A stretch of DNA of 64,000 nt from Clostridia bacterium (GCA_017414965.1 JAFQJL010000021.1:13886-77885); one strand, 5' to 3'; counted from the stretch's first letter, positions 20,554 through 41,360 are shown. Made by a program: numbers and translations. The notes: generated from the letters alone by a model not told the origin.

Positions 20554-20577
20554 GAGCGATTGCTCAATGTCATTAAG
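20554..20577. repeat. left island junction: direct repeat GAGCGATTGCTC (20554-20565) plus terminal inverted repeat AATGTCATTAAG (20566-20577)
   Basis: Exact match to the right junction, read directly from the sequence. Confidence 0.85.
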
Positions 20578-20954
20578 TTAAGTGGGTTTTTATATTTTAG
20601 TTAAAAAGACCTCCCCGGTTTTTAAAATCGGGGGGTCCTTTTTTATTGAAATTGCGTCTTAAAACAAGTAAAGCAAAACGAACACAATAAGCTATTGGTT
20701 TTTACAAATCCATCTAATTACGCTGAAGGCGCGTGCGTATCGCCGAACTCACCAAGACACATAAGAAATAATGTCAAATAAAAGAAAACAGCCGCACCGA
20801 AACCGGTGCGGCTGAAGCTTTATGGGTTTTTAATTACAAGCATCGCGTTTGTTGCCTAAACACAAACTTGTCAGGAATATTACTGTGACCTTTTTATGCA
20901 AATTCTTTCATATATCCCGAATTTGTGGTTCGCTGTGTTTGTAACCCTGTTTCC

Positions 20955-22037
20955 TTATTTCACCCAAGTGCTGGATTCCCGGTTGATACCAACACAGGGA
21001 TCTTTGGTGGAATTGCCATAAAATTCAGGCCATCCAGTGGAATAAAAACAGTTTGAGCCGCCATTTTTATCCACAAAACAGATACTGGAATCAGACACAA
21101 ACACATCCGTTGCATTTTCCGCCAAGCAAAACTTTTCACAATATGTAAATTCCGGCACATCGGTGTTTTGCGAATCATTTGAAACGCACTTTCCCCAAAG
21201 CCATACATTTGCCTTGTTGTCCAACGCAGCGATAGTCTTTCTCGAACTTGAAACGTTGCTCATTCCGCTGCCAAGTTGCATTAAACCGTTTATCTTGGAC
21301 TCGTTACCGCTAACCAACTTTTGATAATCACCGTAGTACCACAAGTCGTTATTGCTTAAAACGACAACAAACGCCTCTTCCATATGTACTTCTGTTACGC
21401 AAGTACCCATAAACTGTGCATTGAGTTCTGCCATCATAGTAGAGGTTACTTGCCCGTATGAGTCAATACTACCGTCATCTTTTGCCCACAAAATCATTTC
21501 ATCGTTCACATCTGCGCAAACAACATCTTCTGCTAAAAGCTTTGGACTGTCTATACCGTAGGTTTCGCCATTAAATGTACCGACCAAGTAGAGTGTTGCA
21601 CTATTATCAGCATAAAGTAAATAATTAGATTCTGCAACGGCAAAAACAACATTCTCTAAAACCTGCATGAGTTTTGTTTTGTCGTTATACTTGTAAAGCG
21701 GCAACGACTGCTTATTCCAAATATACAAGTTTTGATCCTTATCTATGTAGTATCCGCCCCCGGGCAGTTCACCAAAACTGCACACATTTTCGGCTACGAT
21801 ACCTCTTTTTGCATCTTGATAAACAGCATAAGACGAAGTATCTGAATCTGCGCCAGTACAGTACAGCGTCCCATCTTCGCTCAAGAAATACGCCGCACTG
21901 CTATGGGCACGAGCTTTGGATAACTTAACTTCACACAAGGATAAATTAGAGGTTTGGAAATTATTTGAACAGGCAATCGGCAAAAATAATGTACTGGTTA
22001 GCATAAACAATAACAATACTTTTCGAATTATTCCCAT
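20955..22037 (-). CDS. lipoprotein with repeated beta-propeller-like (RCC1-like) units
   Basis: Lipobox LPIAC. About 50-aa repeats ending in DGxLY/NxxLW-type strands. Confidence 0.45.
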   Translation of the reverse strand: MGIIRKVLLLFMLTSTLFLPIACSNNFQTSNLSLCEVKLSKARAHSSAAYFLSEDGTLYCTGADSDTSSYAVYQDAKRGIVAENVCSFGELPGGGYYIDKDQNLYIWNKQSLPLYKYNDKTKLMQVLENVVFAVAESNYLLYADNSATLYLVGTFNGETYGIDSPKLLAEDVVCADVNDEMILWAKDDGSIDSYGQVTSTMMAELNAQFMGTCVTEVHMEEAFVVVLSNNDLWYYGDYQKLVSGNESKINGLMQLGSGMSNVSSSRKTIAALDNKANVWLWGKCVSNDSQNTDVPEFTYCEKFCLAENATDVFVSDSSICFVDKNGGSNCFYSTGWPEFYGNSTKDPCVGINRESSTWVK

Positions 22038-22159
22038 TCAAAAACCCCCTCCATCAAATTAAAAATTTTAATTCTACCTTTTAAGGGGGTTGGGAATGTC
22101 CCAACAACTGCCTTTTATCCCCAAAAGGCGATGCTTGCTGGTATAGTGTATATTCAATC

Positions 22160-22600
22160 TCACACGGCGGAATGATAAAATTCTTTATTTCCCATATGAT
22201 TCTCAATGGAACGCCATCTAAGCCCCGAAGCACAAATCAAAGTACCTGCATAATTATCTAGATCGGGTTCTGACAAATTACCGCAGTCACACCAATAAAT
22301 ATTTTCATCTTTCATAATCATTGTAGAATCTAATATTTCGCAGGTATAACTTTCATTAACAGGAAAAAGTTTTAAGTGTTTTAATCCTTGAAATTCCATC
22401 TCTATCATAGAGTTCTTTTCGTATTGTCGTTGAATTACAACTCGTAGAACCCTACGATCATTCAAGGGATGCATTGAAAGGTTTTCACTAACATATGCTC
22501 CACTTATATAACTTATTTCTTTTATGCAACTATCGTGAAAATAGCATACATTTTCCATAAACTTCAACATTTCGTCGTTAGTACGAATTATCTCCCACAT
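22160..22600 (-). CDS. putative immunity protein for the RHS C-terminal toxin
   Basis: 146-aa cytoplasmic protein starting (MWEIIRT, AAGGAAA RBS) 20 nt after the RHS stop. This is the canonical toxin-immunity arrangement. Confidence 0.6.
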   Translation of the reverse strand: MWEIIRTNDEMLKFMENVCYFHDSCIKEISYISGAYVSENLSMHPLNDRRVLRVVIQRQYEKNSMIEMEFQGLKHLKLFPVNESYTCEILDSTMIMKDENIYWCDCGNLSEPDLDNYAGTLICASGLRWRSIENHMGNKEFYHSAV

Positions 22601-22619
22601 AGATGTTTCCTTTCTTAAA

Positions 22620-25600
22620 CTAACCAAATATCAAAATCAAACCTTCTCCAACACCTGTGCCTAACGGTCCAAACAAGAAATCATCAGCAACACCAATTCC
22701 TGTGGCATCATCTGCAGCTACAACAACAATTCCAACAACACATATGGTAACAAGCCCAACACCTAAAACAGGATCTAGTGAAAATTCATAATCTGGCGAC
22801 GGTGGCAGATGGTCTTTTTGTCTTTGTCCATTTTTCCATTCGTGATCGTGTGGGAATGGAATGTCTTTTCCTGGATGATTGTAATCTCTATCTCTAACCG
22901 CATTACCGTCTGGACCATACCATCGTTTCTGTTTAGGAGTTCCGTCAGGATTCGGTAAAGTTTGACTTGAACCTGGTTCCCCTGTTGGTGGCAAATTATT
23001 TGCAGTAGACACAACAACTGAAGAAGAAGGAAAAAAGAAATTCTTTACTGGCTGAATAATATTTTTATTTACCCAATTTGCTGCTGTTTCTATCCACTTA
23101 GGCCAGTTACCTGTCGGATCAGACATATTTACAGGATTGTTCATACAATATGTAAACATATTGTTGCCTAAAATACTTCCACCGACACCGGATATTTGAT
23201 TATCCGCATTAATAAATCGGCCAATTTGCGGATCATAGTAACGGCTGGATGCGTAGTAGAGTCCTGTTTCGGCATCGTAGAAATAGCCGCGATAGCGGAT
23301 GGGGTTGACGGTGCCGATGCCAACGGAGGTGGTATCCGTCATATTGATGAGGTTGCCCCAGGCATCGTATTCGTACGAAACCACCATCGCTCCTTCGGGG
23401 TTGTAGATCCCCACGACGTCGCCGCGCGCATTGGTCGCCACGTAATAACCGACATATCTTGTGTCGTCGTCCGCGTTATAATAATACTTGATCGCCGAGA
23501 GATTGCCGTAGCTGTCATAAGAATAATGAATGTGCCGTCCGTCGCGGATTTCGCCGTGAAGCTGCCCGTCAATATACAGGTATTCGCTCTTGACGCCGTT
23601 GACCGTCTTGGAGGTACGCATACCGTTGTCGTCATAGGTATAGGCAACGGCCGTATTCCCTTTGCTATAACTGCTCAGTTGCCGTCCGTTTTGCCAGCCA
23701 AGCGTGGCGCCCAGATAAGAAACCGGATTGCCGATCTCGTCGTACGTGATTGTGCCGGTCGGAGAAGAAAGCGTCGAGCCCGCTTCGGTAGAAACAGAGC
23801 GCAGCGGTTTTGCCCACGGAGCATCACCGGCACTGCCGTAACCGTAATTATCACAATGGATATGGGTCAACGTGCTCAAGTTCTCCGTAGCGAGATCGGT
23901 GTAGTTATATACCTTGCGACTCAAGCGGTTGCCATATCCGTCGTACGTATAATGGGTGGTTTGGTTTGTTGAAACGAAATTTTCGCGAATGAGCTGGCCG
24001 AGGGCATCGTATTCGTAGGAAGCGTAATCGACAAAGTTTCCGGTTGTGCCGTTTGCCAAGACCTCGCCCTTTTCGATTTCGATGATATTGCCGGCCTCAT
24101 CGTACGTATACCGATACGCCGCGTCGTTAATGGTTTCGACCTCTAACAGCGTTGTTTGATAGAGAGTCTGACTTCCTGTGTTACGGTCAGAACGGTAATA
24201 GGAGTAGGTGTTGGTCAGCGGTGTTTCGGTCGAGAAGGTACGGGCAGTCAGGCGGTTGAGCCCGTCATACGAATAGTCCGCATAGCGAACGCTGGTATAC
24301 AGGTATCGCGTCGGCAGATTGTCGGCCGCATAGCGTTCGGTGGCGGTTTTGCCCGAAATAGCGGAGTAAAGGTATTTTGCCGAATGGGTATGACCGGCAT
24401 ACTCGACAGCCAACTTGGTGAGGTTGTTGCGGCCGTCGTAACCGAACTCTACCATACCGATATGCGTGCCGGTGGTGGATTGAATTAAGGTTTGAATGGG
24501 ACGGTTAATAGAGTCGTACGAATAGGAGAATTTTCGACCCGCAACCAAATCTGTGAACGATTGCAAGGTGCCGCCGGAATCGTACGTGTAATTAAACAGG
24601 GTGTTGGTACCGTTGCCGATAGTGGCGATTTGCCCGAGCCAGCTATAGGAATAGGTCCGAACGTCGCCATTTCCATAGGTGGCGGTTTTCAGTTTGCCGT
24701 TGTTGGCGGCGTAGGTATTTGAGGAAAGCAGATGGCCGTTTACCGACGTGGAAAGCGTGTTTCCAAACCGATCCACTTCAAACGAATACGTATCGGAGCC
24801 GTAGCTCAGCGTATCCAGTCGGTCTCCGTCGTAGGTGTAGGAAACGGTGCCAAGAGAGTGATTGGCGGCATCGGTAACGGTGACGGAGGATAGGCGATCG
24901 TTTGTACTCGAAACGTAGGTGTTGGTGGTCTTGTTGCCGGACGGGGATGTAATGGTAGAAGTGCGGGCATATCCATCGTAGGTATATGTCGTTTTTTTGT
25001 TGTCGGCGTCAACCACAGAAGCGATCTGGGCGCCGGCTTGGATATTCCCTTTAGCTCCAGTATATGTCACATCGGATTTAAATGCAAGTGTTTCATCCTC
25101 ACTTTTTACAACACTCGAAGTGGCCTGACCTCTGGTATTGTAGGTAAAGGTGGTGGTGACGTCACCGGCGGAGGTGGCACTTAATAAGTTGTGCTTGGCA
25201 TCGTAGGTATAGTTATAGTCATAGCCAAGCGCATCCGTGGCGGACGTCATATCCGGTCCGTCGTATTCCATCGTGGATTTTTGCTCTGCGTTGGCAGCGG
25301 TGGAGATCAAATTGCCTTCGTCGTCGTACGTATAGGTGTTCGCATTGTCCCGTATCAACTGGATCCAGTCAAAATACAGAAAATTGGCTTGATTTCTGCT
25401 CCGCGGTCGCACCAGAATGCTTGTCGGTGTGTCGCTGGCATTTTGCGAAGAAACGAGACTGATCACCTGTGAGGCATACTGCCAACCGGTGATGGCGGTA
25501 TTAAACTTTACTGCCGGCTTCGTTTCGGAATAAGTCGTGCCGTCGGCCTTCTTATAATTGACCGCCACATAAATCTCTGCCAAGCAGTTTTCGTGATTGG

Positions 25601-28600
25601 TTCCCTGAGTCGGCGTGCCACACATCCAACCACTCAGAATGTACGTTTCGTTTGGATCTCCGGAGACTGCAACCGATTGCGACAGATACTTATTGCTGTT
25701 AACGCTGGTTCCCATGCGAATGCTGGCGGTGCCCTGAATCTGATTGGAATGGGTGATGCCTTGGGTTACGATAGAGTCATAAGTGGAATACGTAATGTTG
25801 GTAGCCGTCCAATTGCTCGGGAGATGCTCGGAGGTCTCTTTCTCAAAGCTGCAGTTTTGGATGAGGTTGACCGGATGAGCGGTAGTATTCTGCTCCAATT
25901 GAATGCCGTCTACATAGGCGGTACCGGTCATATTGCGGAGAGCGATAGCCGTTCGAACCGATGTGGAATCGGACGGCAGATCGAACGTGACCGATAAACG
26001 GCGCCAGCCGTTGTCAATAGCGGTATCATTGACCGTATCAATGCACTTGGAGCGAACGGTATGTGCGATTCCGCCACTGTCATAACTAACCGAAAGATAT
26101 ACGCCGTTTAATGCATCGCTGTAAACAGAGGTCAGGGTTGTCGTCTTCACATACGCAGAAAACGTATAGGTATTTCCGGCGTTGAGACCCGTTACCGTTT
26201 GTCGGAAATCGGCACGGCCGGCAAGAGCCCCGATGGCAGTGTTGTTGATTTTAATGGATTTCTTTCCGAAATACGCATAGGTAGAGGATGCCGCAACCGT
26301 GGAAGTGGCATTGGTGATAACGGGCGTCCATCCGGTCATACTCTCAACGTTGCCGTTATCTGTGAAATTAACGACGTTTCGACCAAAAGCAGAGGAGATC
26401 ACCACGCGGTTTTGATTTTTCAGTGCGGCGGTGCTTTCCGTGGAATAATCGGTATAGCGGGCGGAAGAGGCGCCGGTGCTCGTCCCCGACATATATCTTG
26501 TCATAGTAGAGGTCAACCGACCAAGGTTATCGAACTGGCAGATGGTCTGCATATCGTCCGAATTGCCGTACACATCGTCTTTGCCGGAGACACGAATGAC
26601 GGTGGTGTTATACTTGGAACGATCAAAACTGACGATTTGCCCAGTCAAACGATTACCTGCGGAATCCGCCGCGCTGTACTCGGTAATTCTGCTGACGCGT
26701 TTGCCGGTAGCCAACGTCGTATACGTAAAGCCAAGCCGATAGTCGGCGTCATCGGTTACGGTCAGCATCGAAAGCGGAGAGGTCGTTTCATAGGTGAAGT
26801 TTGCAACGGTGCCGCCGTAATAGGAGATCTGGCGAACAGTACCGTTGGAATTGCGGTAGAAGTACATCTTTCTACCGAACGGGTCGGTGATGGATTGGAC
26901 GTTGTTGGAGTTGCTGTAATTGAAGGTATACTTATAGCCGGAGCCATCGACGATATAATCAATCTTTTCTCCCTCGCCGATATCAGTCATGTTGCCGGTC
27001 TCCTCAGCGGTGCCCGCCGGCAGAAATGCGATGTCGATCGTTTGGCCGTTGGCGTTGACCATTTGTTTTAGGTTTCCAGCGGAATTAAAGCGGAGTTTAT
27101 TTCCTTCTTTATCACTGATTGTGTAATAAGAAACACTGGTTTTGGGAATGGTGAGTTTCAGGCCGAGACCATCTTCGTCCAAAAACGTAGTCGTTCCGTT
27201 TTCAACCTTTCTTACAAAATAATGATCGGTGCCGTCGGCATCGGTATAGACATACGGGTACTTTTCTTGCATTTCTCCCGTTAAATTGAATTTTGTTGAT
27301 GAAAGTACGGTCTGGTGAACGCTTAAACGCCAACCAGTACCTATGATGGATTTAGAGGAATGGTTGTGGCCGATGTTGTAGTTTATATTGGAGATATAGC
27401 CGTTATATACTAGGTTCATTGACAGAGGCATATTCTGGCTCGGCGAGGTAAACAACGGCGCGACAAAAACCGGGTTGCCGGTGTAGTCGTTTACGTACAT
27501 CGTACCCGCCGTTCCTGCCGGGGCTGCCGTATAGGTCCAATAATCCTCTAAACCCCGATTATTGCGATAGTCAATGATGATAACCGGATACTTGGCGGCA
27601 ATGTCTTCGTCGCTCGTATAGATTTCAGAGCCAAACCAACAAACTGCCAGGTCGGTTTCGGTTTTTGTCTTCAGCATAATGCCATTATTGGCAATTGAGC
27701 CTTCATACCATTGCTTCACAGAACGGGTAATATCGAAATACCGCCATTCCGGTGCAGCAGACACATCTGTGATGAAACAATAATCGTTAACAAGCGAGTC
27801 TGCCAACGAGGGCTGATTGTTCCATGTGACAGACGACGCCGACCAACTACTCCCGATGGTATGTGCGTTGACCTGCATATTTGCCCCGTCTACAAAGCTA
27901 CTGTGCCACATCCGCATAGCGAGATTGGCACCTACAACCATATCGCCTTTGTTCAGTGCCGGCAGATTGAATTTTACCAAGGTGCGCGTTTTGCCATAGG
28001 CATAGGAATCATATCCCACCGAACGAAAGCTTTGTCCGGTGCTGAAATTGGTGCTTGCGTACTCGCTGTCGGAGGCGATAAATGCCGAATCAATTTCTTC
28101 GCGATCTTGCTCAGTGGTAATTATTGGGTCGATTATAACCGGGAAAGTCGTTTCTTCGCTGTTGACCCACGCCGGATCTGCCGTTATTGTAAGAATGGCT
28201 TTATTTTTCGCGCTGCTCAACTCATAAGAAACGGCGGTGGAAATCCGGCCGGCAGAATCGATCATATAAGGAGCGGGAATAACAAATACCACTTCTCCCG
28301 TATCGTTGGCCATCGCCTTGATTCCGCCGTCATCACCGGCGACAAGAGAAACACCCTTGGTTTTGAATTCAAAGGTGTAGGAATATGTATCTGCCGCAGA
28401 ATGGAGGATGATGTTTTCTTTGATTCCTGTTGGAGAGACCTCGTAGTTCAGCGAGGCGTTTTCCTCGAAATAATCATAGGTAATGGACGAGGAAATGGCG
28501 GAAACCGCCTCCATAACTGGATCGGTTCCCTCAACTCGGGCCTTCACGTTACCGGTGACGTTTCGTTTTGTTTTAGAAACGTAATTCCAAGATAGCCGAT

Positions 28601-29027
28601 AGTTTTCTTTATCGATGCGAACAAGCTTGCTACTATTTAGGTTGTTAGCAAATTTAACAGTAAACGGACCACCAGTGGCGATTTGACCGTTCACGTCGTC
28701 CTCTGCCGTTGCCGCTTGGGCGATCAAGGTGTTATCAATGTCCGTCCACTCTCCCTCTTTCAGATAATGGACGGGTGTTGAATAAATAACCGCGCGAGAA
28801 GTGTGATCGCTCATAAAAAAATGCTTTATATTTTCTTCGCGCCGTGAGGTGTCTTCACCTAAAACAACGGGGGCGTTTTCGGTTTCCTCAACCGCAGAGG
28901 TTGTACTTTCTGCAGGAGAGGTGTCGGCAAGAGCCGGAAGCCCTTGCAAAGGGATAAAAAATACAAGCAAAACAAAAGACATGACGAAAGCAATGATACG
29001 ACACATTCGTTTGATAGTTTGGCTCAT
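22620..29027 (-). CDS. secreted RHS/YD-repeat polymorphic toxin (2135 aa)
   Basis: N-terminal Sec signal. Dozens of YxYDxxGNL YD repeats. RHS core end RYYDPQIGRFINAD...NNPVNMSDPTGNW, followed by a 160-aa variable C-terminal domain. Confidence 0.9.
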   Translation of the reverse strand: MSQTIKRMCRIIAFVMSFVLLVFFIPLQGLPALADTSPAESTTSAVEETENAPVVLGEDTSRREENIKHFFMSDHTSRAVIYSTPVHYLKEGEWTDIDNTLIAQAATAEDDVNGQIATGGPFTVKFANNLNSSKLVRIDKENYRLSWNYVSKTKRNVTGNVKARVEGTDPVMEAVSAISSSITYDYFEENASLNYEVSPTGIKENIILHSAADTYSYTFEFKTKGVSLVAGDDGGIKAMANDTGEVVFVIPAPYMIDSAGRISTAVSYELSSAKNKAILTITADPAWVNSEETTFPVIIDPIITTEQDREEIDSAFIASDSEYASTNFSTGQSFRSVGYDSYAYGKTRTLVKFNLPALNKGDMVVGANLAMRMWHSSFVDGANMQVNAHTIGSSWSASSVTWNNQPSLADSLVNDYCFITDVSAAPEWRYFDITRSVKQWYEGSIANNGIMLKTKTETDLAVCWFGSEIYTSDEDIAAKYPVIIIDYRNNRGLEDYWTYTAAPAGTAGTMYVNDYTGNPVFVAPLFTSPSQNMPLSMNLVYNGYISNINYNIGHNHSSKSIIGTGWRLSVHQTVLSSTKFNLTGEMQEKYPYVYTDADGTDHYFVRKVENGTTTFLDEDGLGLKLTIPKTSVSYYTISDKEGNKLRFNSAGNLKQMVNANGQTIDIAFLPAGTAEETGNMTDIGEGEKIDYIVDGSGYKYTFNYSNSNNVQSITDPFGRKMYFYRNSNGTVRQISYYGGTVANFTYETTSPLSMLTVTDDADYRLGFTYTTLATGKRVSRITEYSAADSAGNRLTGQIVSFDRSKYNTTVIRVSGKDDVYGNSDDMQTICQFDNLGRLTSTMTRYMSGTSTGASSARYTDYSTESTAALKNQNRVVISSAFGRNVVNFTDNGNVESMTGWTPVITNATSTVAASSTYAYFGKKSIKINNTAIGALAGRADFRQTVTGLNAGNTYTFSAYVKTTTLTSVYSDALNGVYLSVSYDSGGIAHTVRSKCIDTVNDTAIDNGWRRLSVTFDLPSDSTSVRTAIALRNMTGTAYVDGIQLEQNTTAHPVNLIQNCSFEKETSEHLPSNWTATNITYSTYDSIVTQGITHSNQIQGTASIRMGTSVNSNKYLSQSVAVSGDPNETYILSGWMCGTPTQGTNHENCLAEIYVAVNYKKADGTTYSETKPAVKFNTAITGWQYASQVISLVSSQNASDTPTSILVRPRSRNQANFLYFDWIQLIRDNANTYTYDDEGNLISTAANAEQKSTMEYDGPDMTSATDALGYDYNYTYDAKHNLLSATSAGDVTTTFTYNTRGQATSSVVKSEDETLAFKSDVTYTGAKGNIQAGAQIASVVDADNKKTTYTYDGYARTSTITSPSGNKTTNTYVSSTNDRLSSVTVTDAANHSLGTVSYTYDGDRLDTLSYGSDTYSFEVDRFGNTLSTSVNGHLLSSNTYAANNGKLKTATYGNGDVRTYSYSWLGQIATIGNGTNTLFNYTYDSGGTLQSFTDLVAGRKFSYSYDSINRPIQTLIQSTTGTHIGMVEFGYDGRNNLTKLAVEYAGHTHSAKYLYSAISGKTATERYAADNLPTRYLYTSVRYADYSYDGLNRLTARTFSTETPLTNTYSYYRSDRNTGSQTLYQTTLLEVETINDAAYRYTYDEAGNIIEIEKGEVLANGTTGNFVDYASYEYDALGQLIRENFVSTNQTTHYTYDGYGNRLSRKVYNYTDLATENLSTLTHIHCDNYGYGSAGDAPWAKPLRSVSTEAGSTLSSPTGTITYDEIGNPVSYLGATLGWQNGRQLSSYSKGNTAVAYTYDDNGMRTSKTVNGVKSEYLYIDGQLHGEIRDGRHIHYSYDSYGNLSAIKYYYNADDDTRYVGYYVATNARGDVVGIYNPEGAMVVSYEYDAWGNLINMTDTTSVGIGTVNPIRYRGYFYDAETGLYYASSRYYDPQIGRFINADNQISGVGGSILGNNMFTYCMNNPVNMSDPTGNWPKWIETAANWVNKNIIQPVKNFFFPSSSVVVSTANNLPPTGEPGSSQTLPNPDGTPKQKRWYGPDGNAVRDRDYNHPGKDIPFPHDHEWKNGQRQKDHLPPSPDYEFSLDPVLGVGLVTICVVGIVVVAADDATGIGVADDFLFGPLGTGVGEGLILIFG

Positions 29028-29300
29028 AACACTCTCTCCTTTTTAATTATTAGTAAAAAGACAAAAAGACCTCCGGGAATGCCGGAGGTCGTGTGTAGAG
29101 GGTTCTCTATGCAGTTATCAGACGCCGCAGGGGTTTCACATCAAAACTCACGAAAACTCCGGCTACTTCCTATTTCAAATATACATTAATTGGAAATAAA
29201 TGTCAAGAGTTGTATGCTGCACCAAGTCCGAAAGTGGGACTAATAACGCCCTCACGCTCGTGATTCGGCAAACATAGTATTTATATAATATTTTTCGTTC

Positions 29301-29329
29301 TTGACATTCGCAACCGTGTGCGGTATAAT
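29301..29329 (+). promoter_or_regulatory. consensus sigma-A promoter
   Basis: TTGACA (29301-29306), 17-nt spacer, TATAAT (29324-29329). Confidence 0.7.
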
Positions 29330-33155: not shown

Positions 33156-33423
33156 TCCATAATGCTGCGTCGATTTTCGCCCTGACGCCATAAAAGGCGA
33201 AGCTGCTACGACCGCGTATAGGCAGCATAAACAAGCGGAGGTGCCCTGTTACCTCAAGTGCAGATGATAATGAAAAAGCGGTCGTCCGACAACCGGACAA
33301 CCGCAAAAACCCACGAATTTCTATCACAGAAGAGATTAATAAGCGCAAAAAGAAACGCGCCCCCTTATAAGGAGCGCGTCTTCGCAAGAACAGTGATATT
33401 AAATTACCACAAACACAAGCTTT

Positions 33424-34527
33424 TTAAATTGCATTCGGTAGATTTGGCTGAGGCAAATTGTTAATACATTGCCGTTTGAATTCCAGCGAGGGGTGCAGAT
33501 AGATGTCGGATGTGATTCGCGTACTGGAGTGCCCTAGAAGTTCAGATAAAGATTTAAGTTCAACGTTGTTTTCCGCACAACGGGTGGCAAACGTATGGCG
33601 CAAACCATGAAACGAAACGTCTGTTACGCCGATGGCGGCGAGATACTTCTTAGCGCGATAATGCATCACTCGCGGCTCAACGATGCTCTGTGTTGGAGTG
33701 CTGAGGAAATAGCAATGCTCCTCTCGCCGAAAACGCTCAACTGACCCTTGTAGAAAATCCGGAATGGGCACGATGCGAGTGGAGGTATTTGTTTTGGGAG
33801 GGCCGATATATATTTCTGTGCCGACTCCATTAGCTTTTTTCAAGCGTTGCATGGTTTTTGAGACATAGATGCACCCATTTGATATATCGCCCCAAGTGAG
33901 CGCACAGATCTCGCCAATTCGCAGACCGCTATATAGAGTTAACAGAACACCTAATTTGGATATATCCATATCTTCTACCAAGTATGCCAACAATCGTTGT
34001 TGCTCCTCGGCGGTAAGGGCCCGGCGGCGCTTTTTTGATTCCGGCAAATACGATATTTCCGGAACTGGAAGCCGATACTGCCGGTATCCGTATTGAAAAC
34101 AAGTGTGGAGAAATACCAAAATGGTATTTACAGTTTGAGGGGACAACCCGCCACTCAAGCGGTCGAGAGAAAATTCGTGAATTTTAAGCGGTGTGAGGAA
34201 AAGAATTGGCAGATCTCCGATATGCGGTTCAATATGATTCCGAAAGAAGCCGTCGTATTTTTGATAAGAAGATCGTCTTAGTCGTGAAGTATTGATATGA
34301 AGCCATTCGCTTGCCAACATGGATACTGTAATTTTTCTGGAGCAGAGTTCCCGTTGGTATAAACGAATTTGATCTTCTTTTTCTTGGCGCTTCTCTTTTG
34401 CCTCTTTACAGGTGTGGGCATATACAGAGCCATATTGTTTTCTGCCGGCTTGATCGTATCCTCTTACATAGCGTGCTTCCCACAATCCATTCTTGCGATG
34501 GTAAACTCCGGTTCCTTTTTTAGGCAT
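33424..34527 (-). CDS. tyrosine-type site-specific recombinase/integrase
   Basis: C-terminal catalytic HGLRHTFAT...LLGHSSTRITSDIYLH. N-terminal arm-binding-like domain. Own terminator at about 33345-33385. Confidence 0.9.
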   Translation of the reverse strand: MPKKGTGVYHRKNGLWEARYVRGYDQAGRKQYGSVYAHTCKEAKEKRQEKEDQIRLYQRELCSRKITVSMLASEWLHINTSRLRRSSYQKYDGFFRNHIEPHIGDLPILFLTPLKIHEFSLDRLSGGLSPQTVNTILVFLHTCFQYGYRQYRLPVPEISYLPESKKRRRALTAEEQQRLLAYLVEDMDISKLGVLLTLYSGLRIGEICALTWGDISNGCIYVSKTMQRLKKANGVGTEIYIGPPKTNTSTRIVPIPDFLQGSVERFRREEHCYFLSTPTQSIVEPRVMHYRAKKYLAAIGVTDVSFHGLRHTFATRCAENNVELKSLSELLGHSSTRITSDIYLHPSLEFKRQCINNLPQPNLPNAI

Positions 34528-34741
34528 CTTAAATCATCCTTTCTGTTGTTTACCACGTCCGGTACCACATTTATTTACCTAAAAGCACAATCACCTCGTT
34601 TCTGTAGTCTATTTTCCGAAAAATTATTGAATTTTTTGGAAAAATGTGTCATACTGGAAGCGGTATAAGATGATTGTAACAGTATTTTATGCGTTATAGA
34701 GTAATCTCATCCACGAAAATTTATTTTGGGAGGAAAAATTG

Positions 34742-35734
34742 ATGGCAAAGTTTTGTACGAAATGCGGGAACCCCGTAGAAGACGGACAGGTGTGCTTGTG
34801 CACAGAAACGCCGCCTATGCAAGGGGTTAAAGACCGTCTGTCCGATATTCTGGGAAAGGTGGCAAATCTCATCGGCTTGGATCTGGGCAGCAACCACGTT
34901 CTGAATCCGTATGAACGCGGCCAACAGATCGTACCGGACAACATCCGTGCCGATGAGGGCGAACAGCCCATCAAGCAATATAACTTAGCACTGTTGCGGT
35001 CTCGCATCCTCTTTAAGCGTGCGGAAGGCCGTCTGCAGGTCACCAACAAACGACTGATCTTCCGCGCGACCGGGATTTCCCTCACCGGCAACACCGTCTT
35101 GCAACACGAGTTTGCTATTCCGGAGATTGCCGGCGTGGAAATCCGCAAATCCAACCGATTCAGCTTCTTGAGCTTGTTTGCGGCCGTTATCGGATCTTTG
35201 ATCGTATGCGGCGCGGCCAACAGCATTTTTTCCTCAATCCTGACAACTTCGGCTTTTTCCTCGCTGGTTGCCTACCTGATCGCTTTTGTAAGCGGCGCGT
35301 CCTTTTTCCTCTTCAAGAAGAAGTTTTGGCTGAAATTGCTCCTGTTATCCATCGGAATGAGCGTGATGCCGGTCTTGACCAACTCGATCACGCTTTCTGC
35401 AGTGATGCTGGGTGGTGAGCATATTGTAAAAAGTCTGCTGACCTTCCCAAACCTTGTAGCTTCGTTACTGGATATTCTGTGGATCTTAGGCGTGATTTTG
35501 GTGTGTATGGTGCCGGACTTAAAAGTGTGCATTAAAACGAAATCGGCCGGCGATGCTATCCAAATCCGCAGAAAAATCTGGGGCTTCGGATTGAAACAGC
35601 ACGACGAGTTCAGTGGATTCTCAGAAGTGCTCCCCGCCGCCGATACCGACTGCGCCGCCAAAGAACTTGGTGCGATGATTGACGATTTGCAAACACTTGG
35701 CGATATGGCGATTGAGAAATGGAAGGAGAATTAA
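34742..35734 (+). CDS. zinc-ribbon / bacterial PH(GRAM)-like / multi-pass membrane protein
   Basis: CTKCG...CLC ribbon. EGRLQVTNKRLIFRATG PH/GRAM-like strand pattern. About 4 hydrophobic helices and a soluble C-terminal tail. Confidence 0.6.
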   Translation: MAKFCTKCGNPVEDGQVCLCTETPPMQGVKDRLSDILGKVANLIGLDLGSNHVLNPYERGQQIVPDNIRADEGEQPIKQYNLALLRSRILFKRAEGRLQVTNKRLIFRATGISLTGNTVLQHEFAIPEIAGVEIRKSNRFSFLSLFAAVIGSLIVCGAANSIFSSILTTSAFSSLVAYLIAFVSGASFFLFKKKFWLKLLLLSIGMSVMPVLTNSITLSAVMLGGEHIVKSLLTFPNLVASLLDILWILGVILVCMVPDLKVCIKTKSAGDAIQIRRKIWGFGLKQHDEFSGFSEVLPAADTDCAAKELGAMIDDLQTLGDMAIEKWKEN

Positions 35735-35736
35735 TT

Positions 35737-35982
35737 GTGATTATAAAATTCGCATCAGATCTCATTAAAATAACCTTTGAGAAAAACGAGCCCTTTGAGG
35801 ATCGTTCCTTGGTTGTTTATGGTGAAGTAATAACCTGCGGATTTGCGGCTATTGTTCCCACAATGAGTTGGTTGTCTCCCTATAAAAAAGATGTTTCTAA
35901 CAACGAATTGCCCTTAATTCGCGATTTAATTCAAAATTATAATAAAGAAAGCAAGTTTTTTATTGACTTGGTTGAGGGTTAA
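35737..35982 (+). CDS. small 81-aa protein (candidate immunity/antitoxin for the adjacent NADase-like protein)
   Basis: GTG start 8 nt after a GGAAGGAG RBS, 2 nt after the upstream stop. Its stop lies 2 nt before the next ATG. Confidence 0.45.
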   Translation: MIIKFASDLIKITFEKNEPFEDRSLVVYGEVITCGFAAIVPTMSWLSPYKKDVSNNELPLIRDLIQNYNKESKFFIDLVEG

Positions 35983-35984
35983 CC

Positions 35985-36770
35985 ATGTTTGATATTGATT
36001 CTTGCTATAGCTGTTTTGCAACAGAGCCCAATTCAGCATATTTCTGGTCTGGTTTGGGGGAAAAAGGAGAGGATATTGCTGCCAATATAGCAAAAGAGAA
36101 CAATGGTGTAACCCTTGAAACATTAATGCGCGAACATAAGGATGAACTGATAAACGCCGGATTTGAATATGATAAAGAACTGGACCGTTTTCTTTTTTCT
36201 CCAGACAATTACTCTGATTGGGAGGCAATCTCTAAAGCTTACGCGGAACAAGCATCTGGCGAGGTGCGCGCTATTTTGGGAGATAATATACGCCAAGATA
36301 GCGTATGGAATACCAAAGAACAACCGGCATTATCAAACAACAATACTGTCAGCAAAATAATTTCTGTTGATCCTAAAACAGGTCAAGAGAAAGATGTTTT
36401 GTTGGATAAATCCGCAATACAAGAATCTGCATATTCTCAAAACGCCCCCCTGAGCATATCATCAACCAATATTAAATCCATTGGCGGTGGCGGTTCTCGC
36501 GCGCCAGATCAATTAATAGCCGGCAAATCACCACCTCAAACCGTCTCCCAGGAGTCCGGTTCGACCGCAGAAACCGCGGGACGGTTGCCTCAACAAACTC
36601 AAACTCCGGTGACGGCCACAGATACACAACAATCGGGCACCACGCCGGACAAAAAGCAAAACATTGATATTCCATCAAAACAATCCAACTTTGCAGTTTC
36701 AAACGATCTTGCGCAAACAGCAGATGAAAAACCTATCAAAGGTGTGGATGTTGCATCTGGTGTTACCTAA
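35985..36770 (+). CDS. ADP-ribosyl cyclase/CD38-like (Tox-ARC) NAD-glycohydrolase-fold protein with disordered P/Q/T-rich C-terminal half
   Basis: YFWSG...VTLETL...DWEAISKAYAEQASGEV...DSVWNTKEQPAL aligns with few gaps to Aplysia cyclase MFWSG...ITLEDTL...FWGMASSSYAHSAEGEV...DSFFGKYELPNL (recalled from memory). This includes the catalytic Glu position (E112, nt 36318-36320). Confidence 0.65.
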   Translation: MFDIDSCYSCFATEPNSAYFWSGLGEKGEDIAANIAKENNGVTLETLMREHKDELINAGFEYDKELDRFLFSPDNYSDWEAISKAYAEQASGEVRAILGDNIRQDSVWNTKEQPALSNNNTVSKIISVDPKTGQEKDVLLDKSAIQESAYSQNAPLSISSTNIKSIGGGGSRAPDQLIAGKSPPQTVSQESGSTAETAGRLPQQTQTPVTATDTQQSGTTPDKKQNIDIPSKQSNFAVSNDLAQTADEKPIKGVDVASGVT

Positions 36771-36779
36771 GGAGGTTTT

Positions 36780-38099
36780 ATGAACACAAATAAAAAACAA
36801 CAATCCTCCGTGTTGTTTGGCGAAGAATTACATAGGGCTTGTCCCAACATTACAGAAAATAATGCCAGTTGCTATTTGCAAGGAGTCGATTCGTCCGGAC
36901 AAGCTGTCACGTTTCCTATGAGTGTAGATCTGCTGAGCAAACACATTCTGCTTTTGGGCGGTATCGGAACGGGTAAGACCAATACGTTTAATCAAATGAT
37001 CGCGCAGTTGAATCAAACCATTACCAGCGATGACATTGTGATCATTTTTGATGCCAAAGGTGATTTTTACCGCGAGTTTTATCGCCCGGGCGACGTGGTG
37101 ATCAGCAACGATTCTACTGCCATCGGCAAAGGTGTATTGGATTACTGGAACATTTTTAATGAAATCGACCGCGGGGAGCGCTTGACAGAGAGTGTCGTAG
37201 AGATATCGAAAGCATTGTTTGCGGAAGCGTGCGAGAAAACCAACCAAATCTTCTTCCCAAACGCTGCTAAGGATATCTTTATGGCGTGCCTATTGCATTT
37301 TATTCGCCACTATTCGCTGGAACAGCAGACAAACGAAAATCTGGTGTATTACATTAACGCCAGTAGTTCGGCAGACATTCGCGCTATGTTGGAGTCGTAT
37401 GACGATCTGCGTGCGATGAGCAGCTACATTTCCAATGACGAATCCCCGCAAACGCAGGGCGTGTTGTCGGAATTGCAACAGGTCGTTCGTGAGATCTTTC
37501 TTGGAAACTTTGCCAAGACGGGAACTCTTTCGCTAAAACATCTGGTGAATGCAAAAGGTGGCATTCGGGTGTTTATCGAATACGATTTGAGCATCGGAAA
37601 AATGCTGTCCCCGGTATACAGTTTGATGTTTGATATGGCGATCAAAGCCGCCCTCAGCCGAAACCGTAGTGCCGGCAACGTGTATTTCATCACCGATGAA
37701 TTCAAGTTGCTGCCGCACCTTAATCACATTGATGATGCGGTAAATTTCGGCCGAAGTCTTGGCATCAAATTTATGGTCGGCGTGCAAAACGTGGAACAGA
37801 TCTACGACAACTACGGTGAGGACCGCGCCCGAAGCATTATGTCGGGTTTTTCCACCAATATCTGTTTTCGCGTCAACGATGCAAAATCCCGTGAATATAT
37901 CCAAGGATTGTTTGGCAAAAACCAAAAAATCGAAACATATATGCCGACTATCCAAAATAAAGGAATGATTGAGGCCCAGCGTGAAGCCAACGTGGTGGAG
38001 GACTGGGATATTACGCGGTTAAATATCGGCGAGGCCATAGTCGGTCTGCCGGGATACGAACCGTTCGTGTTTCAATTTGAACGTTACAAGGAGAAATGA
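36780..38099 (+). CDS. soluble TraD/TrwB/VirD4-like (type IV coupling protein family) P-loop ATPase
   Basis: Walker A GGIGTGKT; VIIFDAKGDFY; YWNIFNEI; FFPNAAKDIFMACLLHF; Walker B VYFITDEF; VGVQNVEQIYDNYGEDRARSI. No N-terminal TM segment. Confidence 0.7.
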   Translation: MNTNKKQQSSVLFGEELHRACPNITENNASCYLQGVDSSGQAVTFPMSVDLLSKHILLLGGIGTGKTNTFNQMIAQLNQTITSDDIVIIFDAKGDFYREFYRPGDVVISNDSTAIGKGVLDYWNIFNEIDRGERLTESVVEISKALFAEACEKTNQIFFPNAAKDIFMACLLHFIRHYSLEQQTNENLVYYINASSSADIRAMLESYDDLRAMSSYISNDESPQTQGVLSELQQVVREIFLGNFAKTGTLSLKHLVNAKGGIRVFIEYDLSIGKMLSPVYSLMFDMAIKAALSRNRSAGNVYFITDEFKLLPHLNHIDDAVNFGRSLGIKFMVGVQNVEQIYDNYGEDRARSIMSGFSTNICFRVNDAKSREYIQGLFGKNQKIETYMPTIQNKGMIEAQREANVVEDWDITRLNIGEAIVGLPGYEPFVFQFERYKEK

Positions 38100-39244
38100 A
38101 AATGAAATATTGCGAAAATTGTGGCGCTCCTATTAAATTTATGGAGAAGCACGTTTGTCCAAACGAGGATGGAAATCCTACTGTTTTGGCCACCGAAAAA
38201 CCGCCGTTTCCAAAAAAATATAAGATTTTGATTGGTTGCGTCTGTCTGGCGGTATTTATTGGCCTGATAATTGCCTCATCCGTAGGGGTTGGAAAAATTG
38301 ATCCATTTGATTATACCAGCGTTTCTTTTGAGGGATACGATTCCGCCGGTCGTGTTTCTGTTTTCTTTGATGAGGATGCACTGATCCAAGAAATCATTGG
38401 GCCGGAACCGAGCGATTTAGGGGAAGAATACGCTGAATGGTTTATGAAGTACGATACATATTCGACATGTGTCAAATGTCAATATGAGCCCGAGGAAGGG
38501 CTCTCCAATGGTGATACAGTTACGGTTACGTTCACGGTCGATGATACCGTAACGAGCCGGATCAAAGCAGGTAAAAAGGAATTTACGGTTGAGGGTTTGC
38601 CGGAATTAGAAAAAATTGATGTGTTTAGTAATGTGGTGCTCAAGTATGAAGGCGTTGAAGGTCAAGCACACGCGATGGCAACCATCGGTTTGGATGTCAG
38701 TTTTTTTAACGATATTCGTATGAATATTGAGCCAAACGAAAATTTGAAAAACGGAGACATTATTACCGTTTCGGTTTCGAACGTCGATGACTTAGCCGAA
38801 ACTTATCAACAAATTCCGGCCGAGATCTCACGACAATATACCGTAGAGGGATTACCGTCGTATATTACGGAAGCTTCTCAGGTCCCGGTAGACGAGGTGA
38901 AATCGTTGGCGGCGGACTTTTTAAAGGAGAAGCAAGCGAATATAAAGGATGAAGCATTCTTTTCCTATTCCGATGTCAAATTGTATGGCATATATTTTAT
39001 GGAGCCCAAAGAAGGAACTTATGAAGATCCTTCTCTTTGGATTGTTGTTTCCTGCAAAGAATATATGGATGGGAGTTTTAGAGACAACCTGTACTTCCCT
39101 TTAAAATTCGATGACCCTATCATTCAGCCGGATGGCACGATGGGATATAAGTGGGACGATGGAGAACACGCAACTTTTCTCACAGGCGATTCATTCCCAA
39201 TGGAGTATGTTACAGCGAAATACAATGTGACGAAGATATTATAA
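38096..39244 (+). CDS. zinc-ribbon, single-pass membrane protein with repeated extracytoplasmic beta-rich domains
   Basis: CENCG...HVCPN ribbon, TM helix ILIGCVCLAVFIGLIIASSV, repeated NGDxxTV(T/S) units. ATG overlaps the ATPase stop. Confidence 0.6.
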   Translation: MKMKYCENCGAPIKFMEKHVCPNEDGNPTVLATEKPPFPKKYKILIGCVCLAVFIGLIIASSVGVGKIDPFDYTSVSFEGYDSAGRVSVFFDEDALIQEIIGPEPSDLGEEYAEWFMKYDTYSTCVKCQYEPEEGLSNGDTVTVTFTVDDTVTSRIKAGKKEFTVEGLPELEKIDVFSNVVLKYEGVEGQAHAMATIGLDVSFFNDIRMNIEPNENLKNGDIITVSVSNVDDLAETYQQIPAEISRQYTVEGLPSYITEASQVPVDEVKSLAADFLKEKQANIKDEAFFSYSDVKLYGIYFMEPKEGTYEDPSLWIVVSCKEYMDGSFRDNLYFPLKFDDPIIQPDGTMGYKWDDGEHATFLTGDSFPMEYVTAKYNVTKIL

Positions 39245-39249
39245 AATAA

Positions 39250-39284
39250 AACGCCTCGGATTTTTAATCCGAGGCGTTTTTTGT
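39250..39284 (+). terminator. operon terminator
   Basis: AACGCCTCGGA-TTTTTA-ATCCGAGGCGTT hairpin plus T-run. Confidence 0.85.
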
Positions 39285-39312
39285 TTTGTGCTTGCTAGAA
39301 TCAAAGAATACC

Positions 39313-39341
39313 TTGACATTATGAATCGGTTATGGTAAAAT
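39313..39341 (+). promoter_or_regulatory. promoter with extended -10
   Basis: TTGACA (39313-39318), 17-nt spacer, TGg-TAAAAT (39336-39341). Confidence 0.65.
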
Positions 39342-39347
39342 ACACTC

Positions 39348-39612
39348 ACAAAAACACTGGGTGCGTTGGATAAGAGGGAAGAGCGAATCGATCGCGAACC
39401 CCACGTGCTGCTCGCCGGAACGGCTGGCCGAGAGCCAGGGACCGACCATGAGCAACGGTCATTTGCTGACGGATGGCAAACGGACAACCGGGCGAAACAA
39501 CCCGGGAACAGGCCACAAGCTAAGTATACTACTGCTGGAGCAAGGCAGTAGCGAATGTGTAAACAAAGCGCATTCACTTACTTTTAATGTAAGTGAATGC
39601 GCTTTTTATTTT
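39348..39612 (+). ncRNA. candidate structured RNA (about 265 nt); partial resemblance to a short-type cobalamin riboswitch core
   Basis: GC-rich relative to its surroundings. At least 5 hairpins (CTGGC-CGAGA-GCCAG, GACCG-N11-CGGTC, CCGGG-N8-CCCGG, CTACTGC-N9-GCAGTAG). AAGAGGGAAG...CCCCACGTG and B12-box-like GAGCCAGGGACCGACC. Strong terminator at 39567-39612. Confidence 0.4.
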
Positions 39613-39699
39613 TTAAAATTTTCATATAAAAGCCAAAAAGTCCCGCTGCAACGGGACTCTTCGGCTATGAAGCGAAGTATCCTCGAACGATACTCCAAA

Positions 39700-41348
39700 C
39701 TACAGTGGCATTATATAGTACTTTACTTAATTTGTCAAGAGTTTACATGTTTCGAGGATGCTTTGAAAAGCATCCTCCTTTTTTACGGAGGAAATACCAA
39801 AACAGAAAGGATAACAAAATGTACTTCGTAAAAAAGATCGACGAAAGCTTTTCCCAGGCGTTAAAAGATATTGTCTCTAACCGAAAGCAATATGTAAGAA
39901 ATCCTCTAACGGATTTTACTCGAAAACGAAAAATGAATATGCGGGATGTTATATCTCAAATTCATTCTATGACTGGTGGTTCGCTTCAAAAAGAGTTATA
40001 TGATTGGTCGAAAATCAAGAAGATTTCTCTTACGGCTTCGGCGTTTGTACAACAAAGGTCCAAAATTCTTAGCGATGCATTTAAAGATATTTTCTATCAC
40101 TTTAACTCCTACTGTAATGACTCTAAAAAATATCGAGGTTATCGATTGATTGGAGTAGATGGAACAGATGTAAGTTGCCCGCGCAATCCCGATTCTCCCA
40201 ACTTTATAACAACATCACAATCTCCGGAAGGAGTTAATCGCATACATGTTAACGCCCTTTATGATTTATGCAATCACACATATGTTGATATCCTATGTCA
40301 ACCCCCAAAGCAGGCAGACGAAAGAGCTGCATTAATCGAGATGTTACACCGAAAAGCGCTTAAAGAAAAGACGCTTTTTGTGTTTGACCGTGGATATGAG
40401 AGTTACAATTTATTTGCGCACATAATTAATACGGAGAATGCAGATTTCGTATGTCGAGTGAGACAGAGCAATAGCGGAATGAGTAAAATCAAAACACTTC
40501 CTATGAAAGAATTTGATATAGATATTACTTTTGATATTACAACCACACAAACGAACGAGGATAAACTTCAAGGGCGCATATGGATTCAAACCGGAAGCAA
40601 AAAGGGCAAGATCAACAGCCCTAAGACAAGAGTTAGACAGTGGGATTTCCCTTCGCCGTATTCATTAAAACTAAGAGTGGTGCGCTTTTTGTTGGATAGT
40701 GGAGAATATGAAACTTTAATTACATCGTTAAGTAGAGAGGAGTTTTCGCTTCAAGATCTCAAAAAACTTTACCATGAGCGGTGGAATATTGAGATATCTT
40801 TCCGTGACTTAAAATATCCTATCGGATTGACTTATTTGCATAGCAAAAAAGATGATTTGATTCTGCAGGAAATCTATGCTGCGGTTACCATGTACAATTA
40901 TTGTAGCAGAATTGCCAGTAGTGTGGATATAAGTCGCTATAATGGCCGAAAACATGCATATAAGGTGAATTTAGCTATGGCTATACATATATGCAAACGC
41001 TTTTGTCTTTCTAATACTAAAAAATACAAAAGCTTACTTAATGACATAAATAGGTATGTAATTCCCCTTCGTCCCGGACGAAGGGATGAGCGAAAAATGC
41101 GACCAAAACGATTTGTCGGATTTATATATCGTGTGGCCGCGTAAGAAAAGCAAGTTTATACTTGCTTTTCTCGTCATACCAAAAATCGAAGAATTTCTTC
41201 ATTTTTCGCCTTAATTATAAGTGCAAAACTCATTTTAAACGCAATTTTATGCTTTTTATTTTTAAATTTCTTAACTTAATGCACGTTTCACAAAAAGAAA
41301 AAGATAGAGAGCGAAAAATTTCTTTTCACACTCTATCTTAATGACATT
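39700..41348 (+). mobile_element. IS4-family insertion sequence copy (proximal left end imperfect and approximate)
   Basis: Transposase gene plus right end CTTAATGACATT (41337-41348). A possible proximal left end, TGGCATTATATAG (about 39704), resembles TGTCATTAAGATAG of the right end. Confidence 0.5.
39819..41144 (+). CDS. IS4-family DDE transposase
   Basis: YHERWNIEISFRDLKY matches the Y-(2)-R-(3)-E-(6)-K signature; DDE_Tnp_1-like layout. ATG at 39819 after an AAAGGA RBS. Confidence 0.85.
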   Translation: MYFVKKIDESFSQALKDIVSNRKQYVRNPLTDFTRKRKMNMRDVISQIHSMTGGSLQKELYDWSKIKKISLTASAFVQQRSKILSDAFKDIFYHFNSYCNDSKKYRGYRLIGVDGTDVSCPRNPDSPNFITTSQSPEGVNRIHVNALYDLCNHTYVDILCQPPKQADERAALIEMLHRKALKEKTLFVFDRGYESYNLFAHIINTENADFVCRVRQSNSGMSKIKTLPMKEFDIDITFDITTTQTNEDKLQGRIWIQTGSKKGKINSPKTRVRQWDFPSPYSLKLRVVRFLLDSGEYETLITSLSREEFSLQDLKKLYHERWNIEISFRDLKYPIGLTYLHSKKDDLILQEIYAAVTMYNYCSRIASSVDISRYNGRKHAYKVNLAMAIHICKRFCLSNTKKYKSLLNDINRYVIPLRPGRRDERKMRPKRFVGFIYRVAA

Positions 41349-41360
41349 GAGCGATTGCTC
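41337..41360. repeat. right island junction: terminal inverted repeat CTTAATGACATT (41337-41348) plus direct repeat GAGCGATTGCTC (41349-41360)
   Basis: Exact match to the left junction. Confidence 0.85.

Follow-up and report, generated by a model that had tools for sequence, protein, structure and literature searches.

Members of the IS4 family of insertion sequences (ISs) encode their transposase in a single open reading frame (ORF), free of frameshifts, with a DDE_Tnp_1 domain, a Y-(2)-R-(3)-E-(6)-K signature and D-D-E spacings of 60-110 and 100-150, and they duplicate about one helical turn, or ~10 bp, of their target (PMC2266710). The IS4 subgroup is distinguished by the end signature -AATR--------WTW----, by duplications of 10-13 bp, by strong conservation in both arms of the target and by a size of 1400-1650 bp, and the size range of the IS231 subgroup extends up to 5400 bp (De Palmenaer et al. 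2008, PMC2266710). Some ISs, including IS1397 and ISKpn1 (IS3 family) and ISRm22 (IS4 family), enter hairpin-forming extragenic palindromes, which offer a safe haven (PMC1525189). Here, we describe an element of 20,785 bp, located at 20565-41349 in a 64,000-nt stretch of DNA from a Clostridia bacterium (GCA_017414965.1, JAFQJL010000021.1:13886-77885; hereafter, the window), that is very probably an IS4-subgroup transposon inserted in the loop of a transcription terminator with a 10-bp target duplication.

Cargo-carrying derivatives of ISs are known in the form of IS231-type elements, MIC231 cassettes and what ISfinder terms 'transporter IS'. Like IS231 and MIC231, the element in the window has a single pair of IS4-family ends around passenger genes and a palindromic target. 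However, IS231 and MIC231 belong to another subgroup, whose ends begin with CAT, and the present cargo, with an integrase, a coupling protein and an RHS toxin, is far larger. With IS4 of Escherichia coli and the IS4 subgroup, the element has in common the Y-2-R-3-E-6-K signature, the end signature, a duplication of about one turn and the use of hairpin loops. On the other hand, its transposase is only ~23% identical to those of E. coli IS4-like elements, and the subgroup size of 1.4-1.65 kb compares to 20.8 kb here, with passenger genes and a leader-RNA module. An IS of 1602 bp on an Enterococcus faecalis plasmid (NZ_CP116567.1, L121) has an identical end, CAATGTCATTAAGTTAAGG, but is a simple IS that carries neither cargo nor leader RNA, and the copy examined has no matching duplication. 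The element is a new, unusually large cargo-carrying member of the IS4 subgroup, and it shows a 20 kb block with an RHS toxin, an integrase and a conjugative coupling protein entering a chromosome without gene breakage.

Borders, inverted ends and target duplication

The left junction reads AAAAAGCACC-GAGCGATTGCTC (20554-20565) followed by AATGTCATTAAG (20566-20577), and the right junction reads CTTAATGACATT (41337-41348) followed by GAGCGATTGCTC (41349-41360)-GGTGCTTTTT (to 41370). These junctions, with perfect inverted ends and a perfect direct repeat, are as described in the initial annotation, which had read the locus as an island inserted in a terminator hairpin. The 12-mer end AATGTCATTAAG has two exact copies in the window, one on each strand, and the 12-mer repeat GAGCGATTGCTC has three, at both junctions and in an intact hairpin (46691-46702); about 0.4 matches to the latter would be expected by chance in the window, with one mismatch permitted. 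A repeat search returned both junctions together as one 37-nt inverted repeat, 92% complementary. The reported switch in base composition is seen at both borders: across the left junction, the GC content drops from 0.52-0.60 to ~0.41, and across the right one it climbs from 0.41 to 0.55.

When the flanks are joined with one copy of the repeat, they form AAAAAGCACCGAGCGATTGCTCGGTGCTTTTT, which folds at -25.2 kcal/mol (z = -5.6). As had been claimed for excision in silico, this restored hairpin is a bidirectional terminator, 2 nt from the stop codon of a GH4 glycosidase gene (stop 41373-41375). The predicted empty site is GGAACAAAAAGCACCGAGCGATTGCTCGGTGCTTTTTCGTTACTCG.

The length of the duplication requires a correction. 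It had been read as 12 bp, but the conserved end in relatives of the element is the 13-bp CAATGTCATTAAG, usually followed by TTAAG, which takes in C 20565 and G 41349. The duplication is therefore the 10-bp AGCGATTGCT, at 20555-20564 and 41350-41359, and it is perfect; the longer reading arises because the palindromic target matches one additional base on each side. In one relative (L015), a 12-bp end puts the repeat out of register, whereas the 13-bp end leaves a clean 10-bp repeat. The duplicated 10 bp consist of the 4-nt loop with 3 bp of stem on either side.

The inner part of the end recurs near the right border, where the initial annotation had also seen it, although at 41270-41281 rather than at ~41271-41282, and TTCTTAACTTAA is kept at the equivalent subterminal place in three relatives (L014, L015 and L017). 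An end-like sequence, TTATGTCATTAAGTAAG, that matches the terminal 13-mer at 11/13 positions lies inside the transposase gene (41037-41049, minus strand), and a comparable internal site is found in L021-L023. Since ~5 chance matches per window are expected for a 12-mer at two or fewer mismatches, such sites may have arisen by chance.

Transposase and family placement

The sole DDE transposase of the island (441 aa) had been assigned to the IS4 family, and the assignment is borne out. It is encoded in a single ORF, scores 173 bits against NF033592 (cut-off 115) and matches PF01609 (E=2e-22). Relatives were gathered by exact-protein look-ups, a metagenome scan and plasmid searches. Across those that were aligned (n=29), Y318, R321, E325 and K332 are invariant and form the Y-2-R-3-E-6-K signature; D114 and D190 are also invariant and give D-D-E spacings of 76 and 135, with the catalytic assignment made by spacing only. 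In the end CAATGTCATTAAGTTAAG, positions 2-5 read AATG and positions 14-16 read TTA, in accordance with the subgroup signature. The only property of the IS4 subgroup from which the element departs is its size.

An end of 13-18 bp is common to elements whose transposases are just 37-65% identical. Dozens of relatives carry CAATGTCATTAAGTTAAG, most of them simple 1.6 kb ISs, and the more distant relatives with the same end measure ~1.6-1.7 kb. Among plasmids, the best relative of the transposase is 37% identical and belongs to an IS on Enterococcus faecalis plasmids, and viral contigs yielded only distant relatives of the transposase. The ends and the length of the duplication alike agree with the IS4-subgroup signature.

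Within this subgroup, the element is a non-composite unit transposon with one transposase and passenger genes. In composite transposons of the Tn5/Tn10 type, the cargo is enclosed by two complete IS copies; here, there is one transposase gene and there are two exact end copies in the window. No second left-end copy was found beside the transposase in the window, and because the transposase has no adjoining left end, the element is not an ordinary 1.6 kb IS accompanied by a stray end.

Hairpin loops as landing sites

The fetched loci contained 59 two-ended copies of related elements, of which 30 are flanked by a direct repeat of 9-11 bp, and 24 of these were analysed. The duplication was 10 bp long in 18, 9 bp in four and 11 bp in two. 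The 40-nt restored sites fold at a mean of -15.7 kcal/mol, compared to -6.2 kcal/mol in 920 control windows from the same loci (Mann-Whitney p = 3e-10), and a hairpin of at least five pairs has its centre no more than 2 nt from that of the duplication at 22/24 sites and in 195/920 controls. Counted from where the duplication starts, the target logo shows an A-run at positions -10 to -7 and a T-run at positions +16 to +21, the signature of bidirectional intrinsic terminators that resembles the IS4 target consensus, AAA-N20-TTT. What the target hairpins have in common is their shape and the A- and T-run flanks, and their sequences are unrelated. In this, they differ from the targets of IS1397, ISKpn1 and ISRm22, which belong to one family of repetitive extragenic palindromic (REP) sequences.

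Two E. coli IS4-like copies with the ends CAATGCCGATCAGTTAAGG also lie in hairpin loops, with duplications of 10-11 bp. One, on an F-type plasmid, has entered a CCCGC-TTC-GCGGG hairpin and is flanked by an 11-bp repeat, and the other is in the loop of the terminator downstream of adhE. Landing in hairpin loops is a trait of the whole transposase lineage, including the E. coli IS4-like elements, and the insertion in the window is a typical event for this lineage, tidy but mostly ordinary. Terminator loops offer safe landing sites to a large IS4 lineage commonly found among gut Firmicutes. For genome annotation, half-hairpins beside CAATGTCATTAAG pinpoint the borders of such elements, and the observation raises the question of how a DDE transposase reads the shape of a hairpin rather than its sequence.

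The core of the target hairpin, CCGAGCGATTGCTCGG (16 nt), recurs in a second terminator ~5 kb away (46685-46708), the intact paralogous hairpin of the initial annotation, and at 7550-7600 of L009, an unrelated locus of another Eubacteriales genome. A loop-complement variant is found in a Roseovarius genome (L008 5098-5119). This recurrence may reflect convergence or a small repeat family; it shows only that such terminators are common potential targets. In L069 (255-1954), the flanks of the IS mirror each other as near-perfect inverted copies, with aagtgaaaagttgcatttt[a/g]cg on either side and no direct repeat, which may result from inversion between two copies or from an assembly artefact.

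Cargo and its relatives

The closest clade to the element, with transposases 57-65% identical, has a common layout in all its members: the left end is followed by 2-4 kb of unrelated passenger genes, a non-coding module, the transposase and the right end with its internal hairpin. Clade elements with both ends on the contig measure 4.2-5.7 kb (L014, L015, L113 and L116); in L017, L114 and L118, the left end is off the contig. The element in the window follows the same layout with 18.7 kb of cargo, and the GC content inside the island is heterogeneous (0.35-0.52). The gene for the RHS/YD-repeat protein is followed by two small genes downstream of it.

The cargo includes a tyrosine recombinase and a type IV coupling protein (Table 1), which were absent from the description in the initial annotation. 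Integrative and mobilizable elements combine an integrase with a relaxase or an oriT, and some of them also have a coupling protein. No relaxase was recognised in the 331-, 261- and 382-aa proteins by Pfam, NCBIfam, PHROGs, PDB sequences or plasmid tblastn, and PHROGs, PADLOC, a PDB sequence search and plasmid tblastn gave nothing useful on the functions of the cargo proteins. In L119 (6055-21314), an integrase, a 331-aa protein, a coupling protein (77% identical), a 378-aa protein and an RHS protein of >2740 aa occur together. This set has no IS4 ends and no non-coding leader module, and the integrase, coupling-protein and RHS set would therefore constitute an independent mobile element. Among gut Clostridia, the coupling protein is one of a large family, with >100 relatives that are 64-79% identical, and L119-type sets appear to represent a family of RHS-toxin-carrying mobilizable elements in these bacteria.

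Another locus, L057 (9833-14205), has three copies of the end, which delimit a 1.65 kb IS (9833-11481) and a 2.7 kb segment that extends to the third end (14205). It is the outer two ends that are flanked by a perfect 10-bp duplication and that lie in a hairpin target, and the locus may be a snapshot of cargo capture.

Leader RNAs

Processive antitermination RNAs, among them put, EAR, conAn2 and canT, are made from the promoter of their operon and enable RNA polymerase to pass downstream terminators in cis. Mobile elements of Gram-positive bacteria such as Tn916 and pLS20 carry cis-acting antitermination RNAs, canT (PMC11658703) and conAn2 (PMC8191782), with insulating terminators near their ends; conAn2 regions are 260-600 bp long and consist of a poorly conserved RNA between a promoter and terminators (PMC8191782). 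A module of similar layout precedes the transposase in the closest clade. In eight clade members, a promoter, a GC-rich RNA of 160-320 nt and an intrinsic terminator are kept upstream of the transposase gene. Two types can be told apart. Type A, with a near-consensus promoter and an RNA at 39348-39607 in the window, is also found in L014 (3503-3805), L015 (3446-3799), L017 (3605-3799) and L113 (~3890-4248). Type B precedes the transposase in L114 (483-800), L116 (9633-9963) and L118 (2772-3103), and it is present in the window too, directly ahead of the 154-aa cargo gene at 29671; this copy is homologous to the RNAs of L114 (nhmmer E=4e-21), L118 and L116. The copy ahead of the cargo operon indicates that the RNA is a leader for mobile-element operons generally and is not specific to the transposase.

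Types A and B share the promoter, a 3' core and the 3' arm of the terminator, GTGCGTCTTTTT. Compensatory changes occur in 9/24 predicted pairs in type A and in 8/37 in type B, which, with 4-5 sequences per type, is suggestive of real structure. Immediately ahead of the terminator, a segment (GCGAATGTG or GCGAGTACG) mimics the terminator's 3' arm and varies along with it, which suggests that it might act as an antiterminator. Rfam has no family that matches the leader on the plus strand, a blastn search of plasmids with the leader returned nothing, and no gene was called in the leader region in any locus.

Between the type-A module and the transposase, a terminator-like hairpin just before the ribosome-binding site (RBS) is a possible attenuator; in L116, the first terminator directly precedes the RBS. 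A candidate small RNA in the same interval, which would be antisense to the transposase leader, recalls RNA-OUT of IS10, and blocks of its sequence are visibly conserved in the upstream regions of most relatives. It contains GAGGATACTTC, which is like one arm of the hairpin before the RBS. Given the strong promoter that precedes it, together with a structured leader, two terminators and the candidate antisense RNA, the transposase is probably tightly gated in its expression.

The leader RNAs hold the same position as canT and conAn2, and terminators near the ends would likewise insulate the element. However, the leaders have no sequence similarity to either RNA, and a ConAn1-like protein was not found. 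The likeness is one of layout only (promoter, RNA, terminator, gene), and a position ahead of a transposase gene has not been described for canT or conAn2. We tentatively entertain the idea that the modules represent an undescribed class of cis-acting leader RNA on mobile elements of gut Clostridia, which, through antitermination or a riboswitch-like switch, might let transcription pass the terminators that insulate the element. Expression of the transposase and, separately, of the cargo operon would then depend on the element's own promoter alone, and the two types would be swapped between elements. If functional, the leader would be a new regulatory RNA in transposon biology, and it is the most promising lead from this locus.

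How did the element arrive?

Several observations weigh against a simple insertion by transposition. No empty site was found in any of the collections searched, and all contigs with this GH4 gene or this transposase carry the island. In exact look-ups, the 451-aa form of GH4 had no match and the 441-aa form occurred only on island-bearing contigs, and the 22-mer GCACCGAGCGATTGCTCGGTGC had two matches in 185,579 species genomes, both at unrelated loci. The species is rarely represented in the collections. GH4 orthologues reach 83% identity at most, with another neighbour downstream. In the nearest one (L010), this neighbour is ligA and not the tRNA/uxaC flank, which leaves the joined flanks without independent synteny support. 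The exact transposase is found at this one site only, with no second copy of the element, and 29/59 of the two-ended copies on metagenome contigs have no matching duplication; these could be due to assembly chimerism of multi-copy ISs, or to recombination.

That the whole 20.8 kb transposed as one unit, as the initial annotation had it, is plausible, and we lean towards this reading with some reserve; the perfect ends and duplication fit a recent move of the present structure. A possible, though doubtful, alternative is that an ancestral transposon of ~4-6 kb landed first and that the integrase, coupling-protein and RHS material joined the cargo later, in place. Such a history would account for the relatives of only 4.2-5.7 kb that have the same module, for the occurrence of the set in L119 without IS4 ends or leader RNA, and for the uneven GC content inside the island. 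However, no nested attachment-site repeats were found around the integrase module, and no shared repeats except the promoter link 33100-33440, 29000-29700 and 39200-39350. The integrase might also be thought to have inserted the island by itself, with the 12-bp repeats GAGCGATTGCTC as the attachment core beside the tRNA-Ser genes, two of which lie 165-400 bp to the left. We regard this as very improbable. In integrase-borne islands, a tyrosine or serine recombinase lies near an edge and attachment repeats, often in a tRNA gene, form the borders, whereas this integrase is internal, with 13 kb between it and the left end and 7 kb between it and the right end, and the borders are perfect IS4-type ends that are also found in 1.6 kb ISs without an integrase. 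Moreover, the insertion is outside the tRNA genes, ~165 bp past the second tRNA-Ser, and both the length of the duplication and the choice of a hairpin characterise the transposase lineage.

That the two 12-mers belong independently to a common family of hairpins, with the restored terminator a coincidence, is harder still to credit, even with the CCGAGCGATTGCTCGG core recurring nearby and in L009. Each junction holds one complementary half of the outer stem and of the A- and T-runs, the repeats abut the ends exactly, and the same geometry, with a duplication of 9-11 bp, is seen for ~30 related elements in hairpins unrelated to this one. It is equally hard to believe that the conserved RNA guides the choice of target by base pairing, in the manner of IS110 bridge RNAs. 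A structured RNA is indeed conserved beside the transposase in the closest clade, but the longest k-mers shared between an RNA and its own target are 7-8 nt, mostly T-runs, and no longer than those shared with the targets of other elements. Simple 1.6 kb relatives without the RNA choose the same kind of target, and the RNA is found a second time ahead of an unrelated cargo operon. RNA-guided transposition by an IS110 bridge RNA or an IS1111 seeker RNA, in which loops of a non-coding RNA pair with the target and the donor, was rejected: there is no excess target complementarity, and the transposase is of the DDE and not the DEDD type.

Transposition into the terminator loop could be envisaged as follows, with catalysis modelled on the transposases of Tn5 and Tn10 rather than on this sequence. 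The DDE transposase would bind both CAATGTCATTAAG(TTAAG) ends, excise the element and join it to staggered positions 10 bp apart at the apex of the bidirectional intrinsic terminator that separates GH4 from the tRNA-Ser genes. Most likely, a transposase dimer recognises a symmetric or extruded hairpin and no guide RNA is involved. The inward terminators at both ends would protect the element and also supply GH4 with a new terminator, and the cargo would bring together an RHS toxin cassette, a small operon preceded by a further copy of the leader RNA, and the integrase and coupling-protein module.

Neighbouring genes and insulation

Does the insertion disrupt the transcription of its neighbours? 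According to the initial annotation, GH4 lost its terminator. On the GH4 strand, the original terminator is cut to a 4-bp stem without a U-run; however, the GH4 transcript meets a conserved hairpin and U-run just inside the right end, and a loss of termination is therefore not supported. This inward-facing terminator is conserved in L014, L015 and L017, where it is stronger, and it likely serves as the replacement terminator, so that GH4 probably gains a slightly longer 3' end rather than losing termination completely. Inside the left end, the corresponding terminator would block read-through from the left flank, and each junction retains an outward-facing hybrid hairpin followed by the original T-run. 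Since the element brings its own terminators, the neighbouring transcription units would stay insulated.

Table 1. Coordinates of the element, its cargo and the flanking features in the window.
Feature	Position	Strand	Evidence
tRNA-Ser(TGA)	20165-20252	+	ARAGORN; Rfam
tRNA-Ser(GCT)	20311-20400	+	ARAGORN; Rfam
Terminator of tRNA-Ser pair	20400-20437	+	inverted repeat
Left half of target terminator AAAAAGCACCG and left 10-bp duplication copy	20544-20564	.	sequence; relatives' 13-bp end
Left inverted end CAATGTCATTAAGTTAAG	20565-20582	+	sequence; L014, L015, L113, L116, L121, dozens of metagenome IS copies
Inward-facing terminator inside left end	20611-20645	+	terminator scan; fold
360-aa protein	20955-22037	-	cargo ORF
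155-aa protein	22160-22627	-	cargo ORF
2135-aa RHS/YD-repeat protein	22620-29027	-	PF05593 RHS_repeat; NCBIfam Rhs_assc_core, YD repeat, DNRLRE
Type-B leader module: TTGACA-N17-TATAAT promoter, ~300 nt structured RNA, terminator, RBS of 154-aa gene	29301-29655	+	sequence; nhmmer
Cargo operon: 154-, 95-, 89-aa proteins, two calcineurin-like phosphoesterases, 256-, 128-aa ORFs	29671-33155	+	PF00149; phrog_839
Tyrosine recombinase (integrase), internal	33424-34527	-	PF00589, PF14659; 52% identical to L119 integrase
Mobilizable-element-like operon: 331-, 87-, 261-aa proteins, coupling protein, 382-aa protein	34739-39244	+	same gene order in L119
Type IV coupling protein	36780-38099	+	PF10412, PF02534, PF12696; 77% identical in L119
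Type-A leader module: promoter 39313-39341, ~260 nt GC-rich structured RNA, terminator 39565-39605	39313-39607	+	promoter/terminator scan
Candidate antisense small RNA, ~75 nt	39625-39738	-	12/12 sigma-70 promoter 39738-39710, terminator 39666-39631, fold z = -6.3
Terminator-like hairpin and T-run just before transposase RBS	39754-39786	+	scan; fold; conserved in relatives
IS4-family DDE transposase, 441 aa	39819-41144	+	NF033592 173 bits; PF01609; YREK residues
Subterminal copy of the end's inner part, CTTAACTTAATG (reverse complement of CATTAAGTTAAG)	41270-41281	-	sequence
Inward-facing terminator inside right end: hairpin 41338-41302, U-run 41301-41291	41291-41338	-	fold z = -4.7
Right inverted end, reverse complement CAATGTCATTAAGATA	41334-41349	-	sequence; relatives
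Right 10-bp duplication copy and right half of target terminator CGGTGCTTTTT	41350-41370	.	sequence
GH4 glycosidase gene; its bidirectional terminator is the target	41373-42728	-	PF02056, PF11975

To the left of the island, the window contains the tRNA-Ser genes and a uxaC (glucuronate utilisation) block. The nearest GH4 orthologue (83% identical, L010 2841-6184) is followed after its stop codon by a different bidirectional terminator and then by ligA; the GH4 region is a synteny breakpoint between species. In L118, 25-200 bp past the right end of the element, there are two matches to the orphan Gut-1 RNA motif (RF01706), one at 4870-4939 on the plus strand with 68 bits, above the gathering score, and one at 4962-5050 on the minus strand with 43.6 bits, below it.

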